Notes under the pieces: generated by a model
Seen by the model: the letters and a program-made list of their open reading frames with translations, nothing else
The model's database searches: none
What the model was told of the DNA's origin: nothing
Shown: in pieces, positions 15,802 through 47,775 of the stretch
Position numbering within the stretch: the first letter of the stretch is position 1
Layout of the letters: each line of letters begins with the position of its first letter
Translations under genes and position numbers: made by a program
UHGV virus genome: UHGV-0169486
Strand: one strand, 5' to 3'
DNA: 50,405 nucleotides
Source: a virus

Positions 15802-15870
15802 GATGTGCGAACATTACGTTCTGGAGGTGATTATTATCATTATTGGATTGTTATGCATTCTGCTATCGAC

Positions 15871-15900
15871 ACTATAAACCCCGCTTCGCGCGGGGTCGTG
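15871..15900. terminator. hairpin terminator between island A and the convergent minus-strand gene
   Basis: CCCCGC-ttcgc-GCGGGG hairpin with flanking T-rich runs on both strands. Confidence 0.45.
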
Positions 15901-30838: not shown

Positions 30839-30928
30839 AATTCACCTCTCAATATTTATTGATGATATATACGCAAGCAACAAAACTTGCACAGTATGTT
30901 AATACTTCCAACCAGTCGAATAGCTTTT

Positions 30929-31072
30929 TCATTGTTTAACCTTAAATCTCTGTTTTGCTTCTCTGTAAATAAGCGCGGTAATCATTACAATCACGTATAC
31001 GCATAACATTAATGCGGCAATAAGCAGACCAGCGCAAAGCAAGAACGTTAGCAGATTGAGGAATTCAGACAT
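30929..31072 (-). CDS. micro-ORF A, 47 aa single-TM peptide
   Basis: Own translation MSEFLNLLTFLLCAGLLIAALMLCVYVIVMITALIYREAKQRFKVKQ; start 3 codons after stop of preceding micro-ORF. Confidence 0.4.
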   Translation of the reverse strand: MSEFLNLLTFLLCAGLLIAALMLCVYVIVMITALIYREAKQRFKVKQ

Positions 31073-31081
31073 GATGCTTTC

Positions 31082-31150
31082 TCACGCAAAAAAAACGATA
31101 ACGGCTAACAGTGTGCATATAGCCATAATTAAGAAATCACCGTCAGACAT
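31082..31150 (-). CDS. micro-ORF B2, 22 aa hydrophobic peptide
   Basis: Own translation MSDGDFLIMAICTLLAVIVFFA; ATG overlaps stop region of B1. Confidence 0.3.
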   Translation of the reverse strand: MSDGDFLIMAICTLLAVIVFFA

Positions 31151-31217
31151 TGATAATAAACCCCACAATAACAGCCGCTGCAATACATACGAATAATACA
31201 GCCTCGATGGTTTCCAT
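31143..31217 (-). CDS. micro-ORF B1, 24 aa hydrophobic peptide
   Basis: Own translation METIEAVLFVCIAAAVIVGFIINV; AGGTGA RBS. Confidence 0.4.
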   Translation of the reverse strand: METIEAVLFVCIAAAVIVGFIINV

Positions 31218-31225
31218 ATATTCAC

Positions 31226-31294
31226 CTATTGAGTCAACGCGGTCATGGTAAGAACAATCGCAACGGTCAGGAAAAATAAATCAAGCCATTTCAT
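31226..31294 (-). CDS. micro-ORF C, 22 aa hydrophobic peptide
   Basis: Own translation MKWLDLFFLTVAIVLTMTALTQ; GGGAGA RBS; ATGA overlap with micro-ORF D. Confidence 0.4.
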   Translation of the reverse strand: MKWLDLFFLTVAIVLTMTALTQ

Positions 31295-31371
31295 TTTTTA
31301 GTCTCCCGGTATACGTCCACGGCAATAACTGCAACGGCAGCCACCAGCAATAGCATTTCGTAGGCGTTCAT
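31291..31371 (-). CDS. micro-ORF D, 26 aa hydrophobic peptide (MNAY family)
   Basis: Own translation MNAYEMLLLVAAVAVIAVDVYRETKK; ATGA overlap with micro-ORF E. Confidence 0.4.
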   Translation of the reverse strand: MNAYEMLLLVAAVAVIAVDVYRETKK

Positions 31372-31466
31372 TTGATACTACCTACAACCAGACCGATGAT
31401 GATGATTATGGCGACAATGCCTAACATCATGCCGCACATAATCGCCAGTAATTCGAATATATCCAT
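31368..31466 (-). CDS. micro-ORF E, 32 aa hydrophobic peptide
   Basis: Own translation MDIFELLAIMCGMMLGIVAIIIIIGLVVGSIK; AGGTGA RBS. Confidence 0.4.
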   Translation of the reverse strand: MDIFELLAIMCGMMLGIVAIIIIIGLVVGSIK

Positions 31467-31474
31467 GCCGTCAC

Positions 31475-31549
31475 CTATACAACATTCTTTAACCACAGAT
31501 ACATAATGACGGCGAGTGATGAGCACCAGATGAGATCGTAAATATTCAT
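31475..31549 (-). CDS. micro-ORF F, 24 aa hydrophobic peptide (MNIY, paralog of H)
   Basis: Own translation MNIYDLIWCSSLAVIMYLWLKNVV; AAGGTA RBS; shares TACGATCTCATCTGGT with H. Confidence 0.4.
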   Translation of the reverse strand: MNIYDLIWCSSLAVIMYLWLKNVV

Positions 31550-31559
31550 GTTGATACCT

Positions 31560-31634
31560 TTAGCTTTCGATGAATATCATGACCGCCAGCCATACAGCGA
31601 CGCATGCAGAAAGGATAACGACCGGGTCAATCAT
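31560..31634 (-). CDS. micro-ORF G, 24 aa hydrophobic peptide
   Basis: Own translation MIDPVVILSACVAVWLAVMIFIES; GGTGA RBS. Confidence 0.4.
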   Translation of the reverse strand: MIDPVVILSACVAVWLAVMIFIES

Positions 31635-31639
31635 ATTTT

Positions 31640-31714
31640 TCACCACAGCCTGTAAATGTTCACGCAAATACCTACGATGAGCACCAATAACCAGATGAGA
31701 TCGTAGGCGTTCAT
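31640..31714 (-). CDS. micro-ORF H, 24 aa hydrophobic peptide (MNAY family)
   Basis: Own translation MNAYDLIWLLVLIVGICVNIYRLW; ATGA overlap with micro-ORF I. Confidence 0.4.
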   Translation of the reverse strand: MNAYDLIWLLVLIVGICVNIYRLW

Positions 31715-31806
31715 AATTTACTCTTTACGGTTATCAGCACGGCAATGACAAAACACACCAGAAATACAGAAACACCGATTAGTCCGGCGATGATGTTCTC
31801 ATCCAT
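31711..31806 (-). CDS. micro-ORF I, 31 aa hydrophobic peptide
   Basis: Own translation MDENIIAGLIGVSVFLVCFVIAVLITVKSKL; weak RBS. Confidence 0.35.
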   Translation of the reverse strand: MDENIIAGLIGVSVFLVCFVIAVLITVKSKL

Positions 31807-31810
31807 AATA

Positions 31811-31879
31811 TTAATGCCCGTATATCAAGATCACAGCGGCAGCAATACCAACAAATACGCCTAACAGAAAAGTAAACAT
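31811..31879 (-). CDS. micro-ORF J, 22 aa hydrophobic peptide
   Basis: Own translation MFTFLLGVFVGIAAAVILIYGH; GAGGGTGA RBS; ATG 2 nt after stop of the HExxH protein gene. Confidence 0.4.
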   Translation of the reverse strand: MFTFLLGVFVGIAAAVILIYGH

Positions 31880-31881
31880 AA

Positions 31882-32424
31882 TCACCCTCGTTTAAAGCTC
31901 ATTACGCGCGGCACATATGCCTCTTTTGATTTCGGCTTACGTTTACCTTTCTTCGCTGGCTTTTCTTCTTCCTTCGGCTGTTCTGCCTGTTCCAGCGCCT
32001 GATCGACGACTTCTGCCGCCTGCATTGCTGCAACCTGTGCTTCGTTTGATTCTGCCAGGATAGGGGAAAACGCATCGAAGATACGGCCTACCATGTAAGC
32101 GTAAGTCTCATTCGCCGGATGGGTAGGATCCGTGGTAGCCACGACGCCTACATCACTTAAAACGTGGAATGTAGTGTGGGCGCATTCATGGACCAGCGTT
32201 CCCAACTCATTGTTGAATACTGCGATCACGTAGAAGTTACCACCATTCTCGCCAGTGCAAGTAAGCGTTAATCCTTCAGCCAACTCGAAATCAGGTTCAA
32301 TCGGAATTCCTGCCTTTTCGCAAAATTCATAGAACATCTCGCTGGTCGGGCAAAAGAAAACAGTGGTATGCTCAAAAAGCGGGATCTTGAAGTGAGGCAA
32401 CTTAATGCCTTTAGCCTTAGCCAT
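31882..32424 (-). CDS. HExxH-motif protein (putative zinc metallopeptidase-like) with Lys-rich C-terminal tail
   Basis: ORF track; HECAH motif; AGGAG RBS; between lysis cassette and micro-ORF array. Confidence 0.6.
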   Translation of the reverse strand: MAKAKGIKLPHFKIPLFEHTTVFFCPTSEMFYEFCEKAGIPIEPDFELAEGLTLTCTGENGGNFYVIAVFNNELGTLVHECAHTTFHVLSDVGVVATTDPTHPANETYAYMVGRIFDAFSPILAESNEAQVAAMQAAEVVDQALEQAEQPKEEEKPAKKGKRKPKSKEAYVPRVMSFKRG

Positions 32425-34318: not shown

Positions 34319-34519
34319 CTATTTCCCATTTTTGCGCTCCTTAATAGCTCGCATGATCTGTATGCGCGTAGCGTCTACAAAAGCGTAAAAGACTGCTACA
34401 GGCCAGAAAGTAATCTCAAGACCACCACGATCGAGATCGTTAGATTTGATGAAACAAGACATCAGGATAGCGCCAGCGATATAAAGGAGAACCACCGCAA
34501 GGATAAGACATTCAATCAT
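34319..34519 (-). CDS. small membrane protein
   Basis: ORF track; hydrophobic N-terminal segments. Confidence 0.45.
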   Translation of the reverse strand: MIECLILAVVLLYIAGAILMSCFIKSNDLDRGGLEITFWPVAVFYAFVDATRIQIMRAIKERKNGK

Positions 34520-34652
34520 CTTCTTTCTCCCCGCCTAAATATTGATAAATTTCTTCAGCGTTTTCCCCTCGCTCAAAACAATAATGTTCAAACATGCGCC
34601 AATGTTCACTAAGAAACATAACAATAAAATTATTAACGTATTCGTCATTCAT
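34512..34652 (-). CDS. possible acidic small protein (46 aa)
   Basis: Own translation MNDEYVNNFIVMFLSEHWRMFEHYCFERGENAEEIYQYLGGEKEDD; AGAGGA RBS. Confidence 0.35.
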   Translation of the reverse strand: MNDEYVNNFIVMFLSEHWRMFEHYCFERGENAEEIYQYLGGEKEDD

Positions 34653-40320: not shown

Positions 40321-40724
40321 TGCTCACCCCACATATTAGTCGCGTATTCGTCAATATCCGGTAGTAGGTCGCCGCGTTCGCGGATCTTAATAAACAAGCG
40401 TCCGCCTTTTACCTTCCGGCAGCGGACAATTTTTATTGAGTCAATTTGTCCATCATCTTTCCAAAATCCGGCATAAGTAAGGCTGTCAAATAGGCATTTA
40501 GGGATATTATCAAGATCCCTGGTCCGGTTATCAGGCGGCGCGGCATAAATGGCGATTGCCAGTCGGCAAGACAGGTTAATGTCTAGATTTAATAATTCGA
40601 TGATGTCTTTTACTTGTTCCCGGTATTCCTTCCCCACTTCGCTGATATAGTGAAAACCCCGTGAATGTCGGTAATAGCGGTTATTCGATGGCGGGTAAGG
40701 CAGGCTAAAGGTATATTCATTCAT
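40317..40724 (-). CDS. rusA: RusA-family Holliday junction resolvase
   Basis: N-terminus SLPYPPSNNRYYRHSRG and DLDN motif recalled as matching RusA; ATGA overlap with NinG stop. Confidence 0.85.
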   Translation of the reverse strand: MNEYTFSLPYPPSNNRYYRHSRGFHYISEVGKEYREQVKDIIELLNLDINLSCRLAIAIYAAPPDNRTRDLDNIPKCLFDSLTYAGFWKDDGQIDSIKIVRCRKVKGGRLFIKIRERGDLLPDIDEYATNMWGEQ

Positions 40725-41676: not shown

Positions 41677-42441
41677 TTAGTCCGGTAAAACGCGGTTAAG
41701 CGTAGTCCGCGTGATGGCCCTGTCGTTAGCCAGGAATACAGCTCGTGCGAAGCCGCGCGGCGTTAGTGAGCGGATCATCTTAGTGCGCTTCGACTTTCCG
41801 CCTAACTTCGCGTGCTGCTTACTGTCTTCCCATTCATCCGGCATTGGTACAGGCCGGAATAGCGGCTGCTTAAATCCATTACCACACCAAATACATGTTT
41901 TCTTCGTGTAGGCATCGCGGTCGGCAATGTATTCCGGGAAAGCAGGATGTTTGTCATCTTCAGGCAGGTAGCCACCGTAAACGCAAGGATTGAAGATAAA
42001 ATCCGGTTTACGCCATAACGTTGACAGTGCGCCAACTGGATTTTCCACCATCCACGGCACGTTATACATATTCGCCAGTTTTTCTACAATTTTTGCGTTA
42101 TACGCCGCCTTTACCTGGAAGCCAGGATCTTTTTTCCGTTTATCAGCGAACCAACGAGCGCCTGATACGGCAAGATCATCACACGGAGGAAAGCCCAAGA
42201 TAATGTCAGGATCTGGATAAACAGACAATTCAGGGGAGAACATTACCAGGAAATGGCTGTCAATCCATACGTTAACATATTCAATATTTGGATGAATTAT
42301 TTTTACCCCGTCATAATCCCCGTGATTAGCGCCGTCATAGTTGAAGCAATAGCATTTATAACCAGCTTCCGCCCAATCTTTAACGGCGTACCCGCTTCCG
42401 TCGTACAGCGACCAGATAACCCAATTTCTAAGCCCGCTCAT
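41677..42441 (-). CDS. DNA methyltransferase, C5-cytosine-like motifs
   Basis: Motif I-like SLYDGSG, motif IV-like GFPPCDDLAVSGAR, motif VI ENV (WMVENPVG). Confidence 0.6.
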   Translation of the reverse strand: MSGLRNWVIWSLYDGSGYAVKDWAEAGYKCYCFNYDGANHGDYDGVKIIHPNIEYVNVWIDSHFLVMFSPELSVYPDPDIILGFPPCDDLAVSGARWFADKRKKDPGFQVKAAYNAKIVEKLANMYNVPWMVENPVGALSTLWRKPDFIFNPCVYGGYLPEDDKHPAFPEYIADRDAYTKKTCIWCGNGFKQPLFRPVPMPDEWEDSKQHAKLGGKSKRTKMIRSLTPRGFARAVFLANDRAITRTTLNRVLPD

Positions 42442-42785
42442 TTTCCACCCTCAAACGTGAAATAGCGGCGCATGATGATAGTGATCACCGTTACCGCTGC
42501 CATTTTTGAGATGAATTGAATAGCTGATATTTCCGGCATAAATGCCATAAACGATAGCGTGGGAAAAATTAACGCATCGCCAATGGCGGACGCTATATTT
42601 GCAGGCCAGCGTTTGGAATCGAAATCACCAGGTAGAACCCGGTAAACGCCGCCAGAAATAAGCGCACCGGAAACAACCGCGACGAATTCGAATTCCCGAT
42701 CCATTCCTCTAAAAACAGGTTTCGGCGTCTGCCATAGGTCTTTTATTTCTTTCGGCGTATGACTGCCGCCGTAATCATTTTTCAT
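42438..42785 (-). CDS. hypothetical protein (hydrophobic C-terminal half)
   Basis: ORF track; 4-nt overlap with downstream gene. Confidence 0.5.
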   Translation of the reverse strand: MKNDYGGSHTPKEIKDLWQTPKPVFRGMDREFEFVAVVSGALISGGVYRVLPGDFDSKRWPANIASAIGDALIFPTLSFMAFMPEISAIQFISKMAAVTVITIIMRRYFTFEGGK

Positions 42786-43269: not shown

Positions 43270-43473
43270 TTAAACGTCCTCAATCACTCCGTCTTTCACG
43301 CGTTCTTTAATATCCCATACGTGGGGCTTGCATACTTCATGGTAATAGTGATCCGGCCTGCTGCCGAAATACCATTCGCCATCCATATAAAAATAAACGC
43401 CAGAAAAATCACCTGGCGCTGCCTTTGTTGCTGCTTCTGGAATTTTCCATTCCCTGTAATGTTTAAACTTCAT
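43270..43473 (-). CDS. hypothetical protein
   Basis: ORF track. Confidence 0.5.
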   Translation of the reverse strand: MKFKHYREWKIPEAATKAAPGDFSGVYFYMDGEWYFGSRPDHYYHEVCKPHVWDIKERVKDGVIEDV

Positions 43474-43515
43474 GCATTAATACCGCCTGTTTAAGCGCGC
43501 TCAATCTATAAGGCA

Positions 43516-43653
43516 TTAAACGAAAATGCTGTACACCATCAATAATGTTAACTCTGTAAATATCACCGACCGCGTTATAGTAATAACAGCCAGCATAACC
43601 GACCCAGCTAATTTAGCGTTATCCGGTAGCCTATAGTCTCCAACGCATTTCAT
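43516..43653 (-). CDS. possible hydrophobic micro-protein (45 aa)
   Basis: Own translation MKCVGDYRLPDNAKLAGSVMLAVITITRSVIFTELTLLMVYSIFV; GAGGTGA RBS. Confidence 0.35.
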   Translation of the reverse strand: MKCVGDYRLPDNAKLAGSVMLAVITITRSVIFTELTLLMVYSIFV

Positions 43654-43681
43654 AAAATCACCTCATATGGTATTCAATAAA

Positions 43682-43750
43682 TCATCTAACAAATAAACAG
43701 AAAGCAACAAATCTCCAGCAAATGCACATGAATAACAATGCGTCGTCCAT
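43682..43750 (-). CDS. possible hydrophobic micro-ORF (22 aa)
   Basis: Own translation MDDALLFMCICWRFVAFCLFVR; GGAGG RBS; starts next to stop of upstream gene. Confidence 0.3.
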   Translation of the reverse strand: MDDALLFMCICWRFVAFCLFVR

Positions 43751-43752
43751 AA

Positions 43753-43971
43753 TCAAGCCTCCATTAATCCGTAGTCGAATTTACCTAAATATCTTTCAAG
43801 GCTAGCAACTTCAACACCATCAACGCACCGCTTCCACACGGATATCTGGTATTCGTTTTCTCTCAAGTGCATATTAAAAAGCACTTCATCGGCTGGATAG
43901 CTTTTCCCGGCGACGTAGGCATCGTGACCTACACCACCTTCTACACAGTAGAGCATCAATTCGCGCTCCAT
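43753..43971 (-). CDS. hypothetical protein
   Basis: ORF track (43753..44031); internal ATG 43971 with GGAGAAA RBS preferred. Confidence 0.45.
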   Translation of the reverse strand: MERELMLYCVEGGVGHDAYVAGKSYPADEVLFNMHLRENEYQISVWKRCVDGVEVASLERYLGKFDYGLMEA

Positions 43972-44069
43972 CTTGTTTTCTCCGCGCCGTAAACCTTTCG
44001 ATTTCTTCTTACAAAACGGATATGCGATCACAGCACAAAATGTATATTTATGTGATCGCGATCACCCTG

Positions 44070-44690
44070 TTAATGTAGTACACGTTTTTCCTGTTTCGGC
44101 ATTGGCTGTGCACGTTTTCTGGCATCATTCAGCGTCGCCAGAACACACTGGACGCCAAAATCATTAGCCCGCATATTATCGCCGACCATATCACCATAAA
44201 TAACAGGCATGAATTTTTTCACTTCTTCCGCGTCGCGCCCTTCTTCTACCGCTTTCTTAAGCACTTCAGCTTCAAGGCTATCTCGCATCAGTTCACGGAT
44301 TGTATGCAATGAAGCACTACCCATCACCCCGTCGCCCAGCGGGACCATTATCGCACTACCATACGCAAGCGGGTCCAGTTCTTCCGGCACTGGTACACGT
44401 CCGAATTCCTCCTCCATGCGTCTTACGAAAGTGAGGCAGAACACATAACGCGCTACCGATGTTTTTTCTTCCATATTTAGAGACACGTAATCGCGGATTG
44501 ACGCATCCATCACAATGTCAACAACCTGTAGCGCCAGGTTTAAATCACCGTCATACGCGCCAGCGTTCATATCTTTTAATACTTCGTGATAATCCTTAGT
44601 TACCACTTCGTGAAAGCTCGCGTCTTCTGTGTAGCGAGTAATTAACATGCCTTCGCTGCCGAGTGAATAAGCCGTTTTGATATTGTTCAT
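44070..44690 (-). CDS. hypothetical protein (about 206 aa)
   Basis: ORF track (44070..44720); ATG 44690 with AAGGG RBS. Confidence 0.55.
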   Translation of the reverse strand: MNNIKTAYSLGSEGMLITRYTEDASFHEVVTKDYHEVLKDMNAGAYDGDLNLALQVVDIVMDASIRDYVSLNMEEKTSVARYVFCLTFVRRMEEEFGRVPVPEELDPLAYGSAIMVPLGDGVMGSASLHTIRELMRDSLEAEVLKKAVEEGRDAEEVKKFMPVIYGDMVGDNMRANDFGVQCVLATLNDARKRAQPMPKQEKRVLH

Positions 44691-44701
44691 AATATTTACC
44701 C

Positions 44702-45034
44702 TTATAGTGGATGATGCCATTTCATTTCAGTTTCTGAATTAAACGGGTTTTCTTCGCTTGAAAGGAATAAATCACGCTCCCGTTTCAGTTCTTCCGGGCT
44801 TATTTCTATTTCATCAATCTGACCGAACGATCCCGGCATCATTCGTTTTAAGTCAGATAGCGGTCGCATAAGGCCGCAGCCGCGTAACAGCATATCAACC
44901 GCGAATTTTCGCCGCCCGCCAGCGTCATTGAAGCGGCGCGACCAGGGCGCTACCACGATCCGGCGTTCGAATTCGATAAATAGTGATAGCTTGTTTGTGT
45001 TAGCGTCATACGCTTTGTGGAATTTAATTTTCAT
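44702..45034 (-). CDS. hypothetical protein
   Basis: ORF track; GAGGTG RBS. Confidence 0.5.
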   Translation of the reverse strand: MKIKFHKAYDANTNKLSLFIEFERRIVVAPWSRRFNDAGGRRKFAVDMLLRGCGLMRPLSDLKRMMPGSFGQIDEIEISPEELKRERDLFLSSEENPFNSETEMKWHHPL

Positions 45035-45215
45035 TTAACACCTCGACATATTGCTCAAGATGCCATTGCCCCACCTCGTCGTAATCTTCATCAAATATTG
45101 TTACTTGACCACCCGGGCCGAAATGAAAGGCAGTAGCAATAAATTCATGTCCCCACCATGACATTAATCTTTCACCGCCTTTCAGGTGTTTAACCTTCAC
45201 TAATTTTATAGCCAT
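45024..45215 (-). CDS. hypothetical protein (start uncertain)
   Basis: ORF track; internal ATG with GGTGAAAG RBS also possible. Confidence 0.4.
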   Translation of the reverse strand: MAIKLVKVKHLKGGERLMSWWGHEFIATAFHFGPGGQVTIFDEDYDEVGQWHLEQYVEVLNEN

Positions 45216-45478
45216 ACGCCGAACATCCCATCCAGTCCGGCGAACAATTTACGCCAGTGGTTTTCAACATAAGCCCGGAACGGCTTAACGCGAACATTGC
45301 GGGCCTTCAGTTCAATCTTGTCGAAGAAACGCGGCTCTATAATTGTTCCGTCCAGATATTTAACCAGGATTGGGCGCTCAAGATCGTTATATGTCTTGTT
45401 CAGCACAACCAGACCAGGGTCACTACGATATTCAGGCAAAACAACAAGATCGCCCTCTTTTACATTCCAAGTAACCAT
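45206..45478 (-). CDS. hypothetical protein
   Basis: ORF track (45206..45481); AAGGGG RBS. Confidence 0.5.
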   Translation of the reverse strand: MVTWNVKEGDLVVLPEYRSDPGLVVLNKTYNDLERPILVKYLDGTIIEPRFFDKIELKARNVRVKPFRAYVENHWRKLFAGLDGMFGVWL

Positions 45479-45597
45479 CACATCAACCCCTTACCAATAA
45501 AAGCCAATACCGCAGCAAGTGCTCCGCAAAATGCAATCGTAAACAGGAAACAAATAACGCAAAACGCGACCGTCACAATATCCTTACCGACTTTCAT
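45478..45597 (-). CDS. hydrophobic micro-protein (39 aa)
   Basis: Own translation MKVGKDIVTVAFCVICFLFTIAFCGALAAVLAFIGKGLM; coupled to neighbours. Confidence 0.4.
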   Translation of the reverse strand: MKVGKDIVTVAFCVICFLFTIAFCGALAAVLAFIGKGLM

Positions 45598-45599
45598 GA

Positions 45600-45719
45600 T
45601 TAACCCCACATATTAGTAATCAGTTTTATGATCGCTATCGTGATATAAAGCGAAGCGGCAAGATAAGCAACCGCTATTGCAACCCCTGCGGATAACGCTG
45701 CTATTTTGATTATGTTCAT
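45600..45719 (-). CDS. hydrophobic micro-protein (39 aa)
   Basis: Own translation MNIIKIAALSAGVAIAVAYLAASLYITIAIIKLITNMWG; GGAGG RBS; ATGA overlap with upstream stop. Confidence 0.4.
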   Translation of the reverse strand: MNIIKIAALSAGVAIAVAYLAASLYITIAIIKLITNMWG

Positions 45720-45967
45720 TTTTCAGCCTCCGCAATAAATTTATCCAGCCATTTATTATTCGCCAGGCGTTCGGCATCTTCGCCAAATGATTTACGATCG
45801 CTTAATTCCTGTCGAGTAGGGAAAGGCCATTTATCACTCCAGCCCGCAGACGTTTCGAATTCATAGTTGCCGCCGCCGAAATCAACAAATACATCACTAT
45901 CATCAAGGCTTTCCGCAGTTCTCTGAAAACCTCTACAGTTATTTTCGCTTAATGTTGTAGCTGTCAT
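45716..45967 (-). CDS. hypothetical protein
   Basis: ORF track (45716..46195); ATG 45967 with GAGGAG RBS; upstream part of track ORF overlaps another gene. Confidence 0.5.
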   Translation of the reverse strand: MTATTLSENNCRGFQRTAESLDDSDVFVDFGGGNYEFETSAGWSDKWPFPTRQELSDRKSFGEDAERLANNKWLDKFIAEAEK

Positions 45968-47484: not shown

Positions 47485-47775
47485 TTATCTGTAGCGTACT
47501 TTATCCAGGGGTTTTTCCCCTAGACTACGCGGTTGTGTTGCGTGGTAGTAATTGCCGCTTTCGTTTTCCGCATACCATTTTGCCGCACCTTTGCGATGCT
47601 CTTTAATGCCATTCGGTTTGCATCTTTCTACGTTTGCAAAACGAATAGCTTTATCAACATTGTCAGTTTTATTGATTGCAGGTGATGATTTTCTTTCGTT
47701 TTCTCTTTTTATTCTTCTGCGTTCCCTGGCATTTATTTTGCTATCACATTTGCCATACATAATTGTTACGGTCAT
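47485..47775 (-). CDS. N-like transcription antitermination protein (arginine-rich motif)
   Basis: First gene downstream of PL-like promoter and boxA/boxB; ARM-like NARERRRIKRENERK; AAGGAG RBS. Confidence 0.55.
   Translation of the reverse strand: MTVTIMYGKCDSKINARERRRIKRENERKSSPAINKTDNVDKAIRFANVERCKPNGIKEHRKGAAKWYAENESGNYYHATQPRSLGEKPLDKVRYR

Follow-up and report, generated by a model that had tools for sequence, protein, structure and literature searches.

Two intact micro-genes for predicted single-helix membrane peptides, a truncated third and a frameshifted soluble-protein gene in the early operon of an mEp021-group phage

Results

The viral genome UHGV-0169486, a stretch of 50,405 nucleotides (nt) that we refer to as the window, carries four short open reading frames (ORFs) in its leftward gene block. 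We name them A (45600–45719), B (45478–45597), D (43682–43750) and C (43516–43653). An initial annotation had read all four, of 39, 39, 22 and 45 amino acids (aa), as genes for hydrophobic peptides with good ribosome-binding sites (RBSs). We find all four on the minus strand, inside a long early operon, with exactly these coordinates and lengths, and that reading was partly right. A and B each represent a conserved family of micro-protein genes with an intact copy and D a third such family with a damaged one, whereas C is a frameshifted gene for a soluble protein that had been misread. We hold with high confidence to this assignment of the four ORFs, to the placement of the phage within its group and to the position of the micro-genes as internal cistrons of the operon.

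Phage and operon context

This region shares 80–83% nucleotide identity with seven sequenced coliphages (mEp021, mEp010, mEp013, mEp044, mEp515, mEp554 and MagusPhagus), and prophages matching the region were found in 35 of 5,426 complete Escherichia coli genomes. We place the window in the mEp021/mEpimmI group, as a temperate phage or prophage of E. coli. Phages of the mEpimmI group are temperate, Nus-dependent and non-lambdoid, and use Gp17 as their N-like antiterminator (PMC11893012). The early operon runs on the minus strand from an N-like gene (47485–47775) through erf, ssb and abc2 to a Dam-like gene. For comparison we used loci from the seven phages, nine prophage loci, 31 loci from IMG/VR and five more divergent loci.

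Micro-genes A, B and D are conserved coding sequences

Micro-gene A (45600..45719, minus strand) encodes a 39-aa peptide (MNIIKIAALSAGVAIAVAYLAASLYITIAIIKLITNMWG) with a single, Ala-rich predicted membrane helix. A GGAGG motif lies 7 nt upstream of its ATG, which overlaps the stop codon of the upstream 83-aa gene (45716..45967, minus strand; phrog_28542) in the sequence ATGA, and its TAA ends 2 nt before the ATG of B. An ORF occupies this position in every related locus that covers it (about 50), in three allelic types that are all hydrophobic, and it is intact at all of them but one metagenomic contig. In that IMG/VR contig (L017), one A of an A5 run is missing, which may reflect a sequencing error or a real loss. 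Residues Y19, S23 and T27 are invariant, and their i, i+4, i+8 spacing would place them on one helical face as a polar stripe. In the window, the usual TGA stop has changed to TGG (45600–45605), so that the peptide runs on for two residues (WG) until a TAA is reached; B is affected as well, its Shine-Dalgarno (SD) sequence turning from GAGG to GGGG through this one base change.

Micro-gene B (45478..45597, minus strand) encodes a 39-aa peptide (MKVGKDIVTVAFCVICFLFTIAFCGALAAVLAFIGKGLM) with a predicted Cys/Phe-rich single membrane helix. Its RBS is therefore GGGG in the window and GAGG in relatives. In the sequence TGATG, its TGA shares bases with the start codon of the 90-aa gene next downstream (45209..45478, minus strand; phrog_28396), and the two are translationally coupled. 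B is intact, at 38–40 aa, in all 47 loci, with G25, A28 and A29 invariant. The AlphaFold model of B consists of one helix spanning residues 4–38, with a predicted local distance difference test (pLDDT) score of 87, and one B orthologue carries the label ‘putative membrane protein’ (KEN71007.1).

The 90-aa neighbour of B belongs to a family found only in E. coli. Its more divergent copies (65–74% identity) are still preceded by A and B. A scan of the genome collection with the 90-aa gene gave zero matches, and its AlphaFold model is unusable (pLDDT 48). An apparent fusion between B and the 90-aa gene (P0003) was discounted as a frameshift product on a single contig.

Micro-gene D (43682..43750, minus strand) is present in the window as a truncated allele of 22 aa (MDDALLFMCICWRFVAFCLFVR) with two changes, W23stop and G13R. 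It has a GGAGG RBS, and its ATG lies 3 nt past the stop of a 72-aa gene. The intact form, of 29–30 aa and ending in ...FIRWFIEYHMR, is encoded in 46 of 46 relatives; it combines an acidic N-terminus, one helix and the basic tail RWFIEYHMR, a charge distribution that suggests an N-out/C-in topology by the positive-inside rule. Codon 23, which is TGG (Trp23) in every relative, is TGA in the window, with loss of the conserved tail WFIEYHMR. Mid-helix position 13, a Gly in all but two of the 46 relatives, is an Arg. The remnant of the tail (43658..43681, minus strand), reading FIEYHMR followed by the native TGA, is now untranslated and overlaps the C RBS at AGGTGA.

An extra hydrophobic micro-ORF of 32 aa, which we call ‘E’ (MWLIDLILACWLIVLVGFVGYFAWEEGKHNGR), lies directly upstream of D in an E. 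coli KKa019 prophage (L008) and in loci L051–L053, and overlaps the D start by 11 nt. It accompanies a divergent D allele beginning MDAE. Both L008 and L051 keep an intact ‘E’, whereas in L052 a stop at codon 2, and in L053 a frameshift, disrupts it.

The substitution patterns of all three families are those of coding sequence. Against the phage relatives, the ratio of nonsynonymous to synonymous substitution rates (dN/dS, Nei–Gojobori) is 0.08–0.15 for A, 0.36–0.43 for B and 0.08–0.11 for D, and variable columns are distributed over the three codon positions as 14/10/31, 18/16/29 and 7/2/12, respectively. Across all distinct sequences, the analogous pN/pS is 0.33 for A, 0.39 for B and 0.19 for D, within the range of 0.17–0.47 obtained for accepted neighbouring genes. 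Pooled ratios in the alternative frames are 0.9–7, except for 0.44 in the +1 frame of D, and length differences within the families are multiples of three. Judged by these patterns, A, B and D are real protein-coding genes.

All three products have a hydrophobic composition, with a grand average of hydropathy (GRAVY) of 1.5–1.9, and on a Hessa-type scale their insertion energies sum to negative values: −1.3 to −1.8 for A, −4.3 for B, and −4.3 for the 30-aa form of D, reduced to −1.65 for the window allele. Each is predicted to form one hydrophobic helix with short charged ends. Of the hallmarks of small single-pass membrane proteins, a coding ORF of no more than about 50 codons and one hydrophobic stretch able to span the membrane, A, B and D show the first and are predicted to show the second; C fails the coding test. 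By these features, A, B and D appear to be new members of the class of small single-helix membrane proteins.

The families are narrowly distributed. A tblastn search with B and the 30-aa form of D against 50,697 phage records recovered only the seven mEpimmI phages, an exhaustive phmmer search with B against 1.84 billion representatives recovered only two orthologues, and a protein database search with a concatenated A, B and D query gave no match. In these searches, A, B and D are conserved, group-specific orphan families, none of them matched outside the mEp021 group. RNA structure in the three regions is not significant (z = −0.47, +0.44 and +1.49), and they have no Rfam match at E ≤ 1 and no promoter-like site of their own.

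The text of the mEpimmI paper does not mention A, B or D (PMC11893012). Direct orthologues are listed as hypothetical proteins, with no accompanying analysis, in PHANOTATE-based records of mEp010, mEp013, mEp044, mEp515, mEp554 and MagusPhagus (for example mEp044_27, _28 and _34, and MagusPhagus CDS0113, 0112 and 0106); compared with these, the window D is truncated and the window A is extended by 2 aa. The NCBI pipeline mostly omits them, probably because RefSeq ab initio calls have a 40-aa limit (PMC11188072). Among the nine prophage loci inspected, the only annotated B orthologue is the 40-aa allele of UMNK88.

ORF C is a frameshifted gene for a soluble protein

As first read, ORF C (43516..43653, minus strand) is a chimera of 17 native N-terminal residues and a 28-residue out-of-frame tail. 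The gene itself extends over 43463..43653 (minus strand) and is a frameshifted homologue of mEp021 gp27 (phrog_37004), a soluble protein of 63–64 aa. It shares with gp27 its position, start codon and RBS (GAGGTGA), and differs by a one-base deletion and the unrelated 28-aa tail that follows. The missing base is an A between 43603 and 43602, after codon 17, where the window reads GCTGGG-TCGGT and the closest prophages, 93–94% identical here, read GGGATCGGT. A match to phrog_37004 (E = 1.3e-12, residues 4–59 of the 64-position profile) emerges only once the deleted base is put back. No stop interrupts the original frame before its native TAA, and this openness points to a recent deletion; the TAA overlaps the ATG of the DUF7274 gene that follows (43270–43473, minus strand).

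All 46 relatives encode the intact 63–64-aa protein, with a GRAVY of about 0, and the reading frame used in the window is found in 0 of 46, where it carries stop codons. The out-of-frame tail has an insertion energy of +1.6 and is not predicted to span the membrane. By this comparison, C is no membrane peptide gene but a soluble-protein gene in a frameshifted, pseudogene-like allele. Programmed frameshifting at the deletion was considered and rejected, as GCU GGG UCG is not slippery and all relatives carry the extra base. One could still take the 45-aa ORF for a real gene of a hydrophobic peptide, which has perhaps gained its function recently in the window strain: the start codon and RBS are intact, so the product would be made, and the allele recurs unchanged in at least five sequencing runs. 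However, the frame exists in this strain only, the frame it displaced is still open, and the tail is not predicted to enter the membrane, which makes this reading scarcely credible. C thus offers a caution that a frameshifted gene can mimic a hydrophobic micro-ORF with a good RBS.

These results divide the claims of the initial annotation. A and B are indeed tandem and coupled, their start and stop codons overlapping or abutting those of the flanking genes. The description of the RBSs as good suits A, D and C, but the window B has a weaker one. Hydrophobicity is borne out for A, B and D and not for C, and as genuine micro-genes A and B stand, D represents a real family through a damaged allele, and C falls away. 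Conservation in related phages, which had been proposed as a check, separates the same ORFs: A, B and D are conserved and the C frame is not. Chance also produces hydrophobic ORFs that have SD-like motifs in the window, both on non-coding strands and within long genes; taken by itself, the sequence pattern is therefore weak evidence, and it is conservation that decides.

The window strain carries lesions in both C and D

The lesions in C and D belong to a circulating strain. Five loci from five different runs or assemblies are 99.98–100% identical to the window, and all carry both the C frameshift and the D stop; all three of them that reach A also carry its 2-aa extension. The exact 45-aa C product is encoded on 13 contigs, and a record of it exists (DAR54177.1) from a Caudoviricetes genome of metagenomic origin. 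Apart from the C deletion, every indel inside a gene over 3.7 kb of comparison with the closest prophages has a length that is a multiple of three. Because identical lesions recur in several runs and assemblies and the C deletion stands alone in this way, we rejected sequencing error as their source. The window thus represents a circulating strain in which D and C are both inactivated. As its contigs reach about 150 kb, the strain is probably a prophage.

Several features connect D with C. The native D stop falls inside the C RBS. In L061 and L062 (1501–1791), and on four contigs in total, the TGA of D has become TGG and the two genes form an in-frame fusion of 96 aa; the upstream mosaics of L061 and L062 differ, with a 78-aa and a 115-aa gene in one and a single 206-aa gene in the other. 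Damage to both D and C, finally, is seen in the window strain only. On the basis of this stop/RBS overlap, the fusion in two mosaics and the joint loss, each a weak argument when taken singly, D probably works together with C.

Number of small membrane peptides

The main array of hydrophobic micro-ORFs lies elsewhere in the window (30849–31885, minus strand), flanked by the small terminase gene and a gene of 180 aa, and comprises 12 tandem ORFs of 22–47 aa. Their N-termini are mostly acidic and some look paralogous (MNAYDLIW, MNIYDLIW, MNAYEML). Array members recur in relatives, with four in mEp021, five in mEp013 and 10 in MagusPhagus, copy numbers that come from one scan. The initial annotation had credited the phage with at least 15 small membrane peptides. 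A total of 15 is reached without C, as 12 plus A, B and D, but only because the array has 12 members and not 11, and with D counted in its damaged form. That this number is unusually high, as also claimed, is plausible rather than established: an identical, annotation-free micro-ORF scan gave 12 candidates in the window and one in phage lambda, the single comparator.

Two further small hydrophobic ORFs with good RBSs lie in the leftward block, at 34535–34648 (37 aa) and 34319–34519 (66 aa), both on the minus strand; the former is a candidate beyond the 15. In phage lambda (L063), a hydrophobic 26-aa ORF (MTIYITELITGLLVIAGLFIWGRGKS) with an SD-like motif lies between ren and ninB (40567–40647, plus strand) and carries no annotation in NC_001416.

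Discussion

Our best overall explanation combines the identity of the phage, the micro-genes A, B and D, the C frameshift and a mode of action for the three peptides, and as a whole we favor it with moderate confidence. From their position and coupling, A, B and D would be translated during lytic growth or on induction, as ribosomes travel down the antiterminated early mRNA, and would enter the host inner membrane as single-pass peptides. There they may act by specific helix–helix packing with host membrane proteins, with phage membrane proteins or with each other. We propose packing because small and polar residues are kept: Y19, S23 and T27 in A; G25, A28 and A29 in B; and W12, G13 and the tail in D. 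Purifying selection on residues also implies that the peptides themselves matter, beyond the act of translation. Small single-helix proteins commonly bind larger membrane proteins (PMC12648545, PMC11188072). Specific helix packing is accordingly, by analogy, the most likely mode among those we considered, although as a statement about A, B and D it is tentative.

Several points weigh against this interpretation. Translation and membrane location of A, B and D are predictions from sequence. The insertion energies rest on Hessa 2005 central-position values rather than on a dedicated predictor, and on this scale that of A is only marginally favorable and that of its MagusPhagus allele is +0.26. 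Comparisons of A, B and D with Pfam, PHROGs, NCBIfam, PADLOC and PDB gave no meaningful match and no homologue of known function. Physical linkage is by itself enough to explain why alleles of A and B co-vary. The D–C fusion, found on only four contigs, keeps the start site of C and may be a tolerated accident. The lesions in D and C are also compatible with prophage decay or plain dispensability, in which case their joint loss says nothing about a partnership.

The main rival to helix packing is a membrane-damaging, toxin-like action, in which A, B and/or D would be pore-forming or depolarizing peptides of the type I toxin or ‘kil’ kind, serving early shutdown of host energy metabolism or abortive or addiction killing. 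Their size, single helix and short charged flanks do resemble those of type I toxins (PMC12648545), the Ala/Gly/Ser-rich helix of A with its conserved polar face is compatible with self-association, and NCBI records give the 90-aa gene that is coupled to B the name ‘toxin-antitoxin system toxin subunit’. That name, however, has no family-model support in Pfam, NCBIfam or PADLOC, and A, B and D themselves match none of the Hok, Ldr, TisB or Ibs-type Pfam models and nothing in NCBIfam or PADLOC. The strand opposite A, B and D carries no promoter-like site there, and neither an antitoxin-like RNA nor an Rfam match (at the threshold given above) was found. The ORFs are internal cistrons starting 0–3 nt from the preceding stop, not separate, tightly repressed units, and a separate lysis cassette is already present near 32.7–33.9 kb. 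We therefore judge a toxin role unlikely, if worth keeping in mind. The micro-ORFs could instead protect a lysogen at its inner membrane, by superinfection exclusion or by blocking DNA entry or a receptor. Temperate-phage small membrane proteins often serve exclusion, this phage group encodes an exclusion lipoprotein (PMC11893012), and the turnover of micro-ORFs, with ORFs gained or lost and alleles exchanged (those of A and D, with ‘E’ as an extra ORF of L008 and L051), resembles that of accessory or defence genes. Yet PADLOC gives no match, and A, B and D lie deep in an antitermination-dependent early lytic operon (PMC11893012). Because they have no promoter-like site of their own there, expression in a repressed lysogen is not expected, and we regard protection of the lysogen as quite improbable.

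Two further explanations deny the peptides any role as such. The ORFs could be translated spacers that keep ribosomes on the mRNA, for coupling and protection from Rho, with the peptide sequence irrelevant; tight start/stop overlaps with neighbours at every junction fit this idea. Against it, amino acids are under purifying selection comparable to that on neighbouring genes, hydrophobicity is kept across divergent alleles and specific residues are invariant, which leaves the spacer model with very little probability. Alternatively, the segments could be non-coding regulatory RNA or DNA with incidental ORFs, as the mEp021 GenBank record predicts an intrinsic terminator (‘TERM_2’) inside the A ortholog and the hairpin does fold in mEp021. 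This hairpin is absent from the window A, the folding z-scores are not significant, substitution is codon-periodic, Rfam gives no match and no compensatory base-pair changes were seen; we give a non-coding origin almost no credence. Nor do A, B and D fit holins, antiholins or spanins by location: the lysis-type ORFs, recognized by position and size, lie at about 32.7–33.9 kb, 10–12 kb from A, B and D, and the peptides, at 22–39 aa, are below holin size.

Among known systems, A, B and D come close to the bacterial small membrane proteins of less than 50 aa such as AcrZ, MgtS, CydX and KdpF (PMC12648545). They resemble these in size, single helix, charged flanks and missed annotation, and may share partner binding, by inference only; they differ in being encoded by phages, in an early lytic operon of one phage group, and in lacking sequence similarity to any characterized member. 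With type I toxins (Hok/Gef, Ldr, TisB, IbsC and DinQ), some of which are prophage-borne, they share the form of a short hydrophobic single-helix peptide. Unlike them, A, B and D have no antisense RNA antitoxin, separate promoter, structured leader or Pfam or Rfam match, and are embedded in an operon and coupled. As a class, small single-helix proteins are already known, though under-annotated, and our findings overturn no current understanding. Cultivable model phages for experiments on A, B and D are available in mEp021 and its relatives.

A broader and distinctly speculative idea is that mEp021-group phages keep an expandable repertoire of at least 15 one-helix micro-proteins per genome, made up of A, B, D, an optional ‘E’ and the array of 4–12 copies by the terminase gene. 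D, at least, would then be a detachable membrane anchor for the soluble early protein C, in a module that is fused, split or lost as a unit. We think this improbable as it stands; if true, it would represent a general and so far undescribed route by which phages target early proteins to the host inner membrane or remodel that membrane.

Further observations in the window

The Dam-like gene near the end of the early operon (42438–42785, minus strand) encodes 115 aa in the window, compared with 179 aa in relatives. Alignment to relatives is confined to residues 1–70 (about 58% identical to those of the phage relatives); the C-terminal portion is hydrophobic and shows no relationship. This, too, may be a gene that was truncated or fused in the window strain.

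The 100-nt gap between a 216-aa gene and the 72-aa gene upstream of D contains, at about 44024–44065 (minus strand), a conserved 14-bp palindrome (GTGATCGCGATCAC) followed about 20 nt further on by a repeated half-site (TGTGATCGC). Both elements are also present in mEp010 and mEp021, and they may mark an operator or internal promoter region. In L051, the gap between the corresponding genes holds a 60-aa ORF with a hydrophobic segment.

On the plus strand, a strongly hydrophobic 24-aa ORF (MCEHYVLEVIIIIIGLLCILLSTL) with an SD-like motif is located at 15803–15877, between two small plus-strand ORFs.

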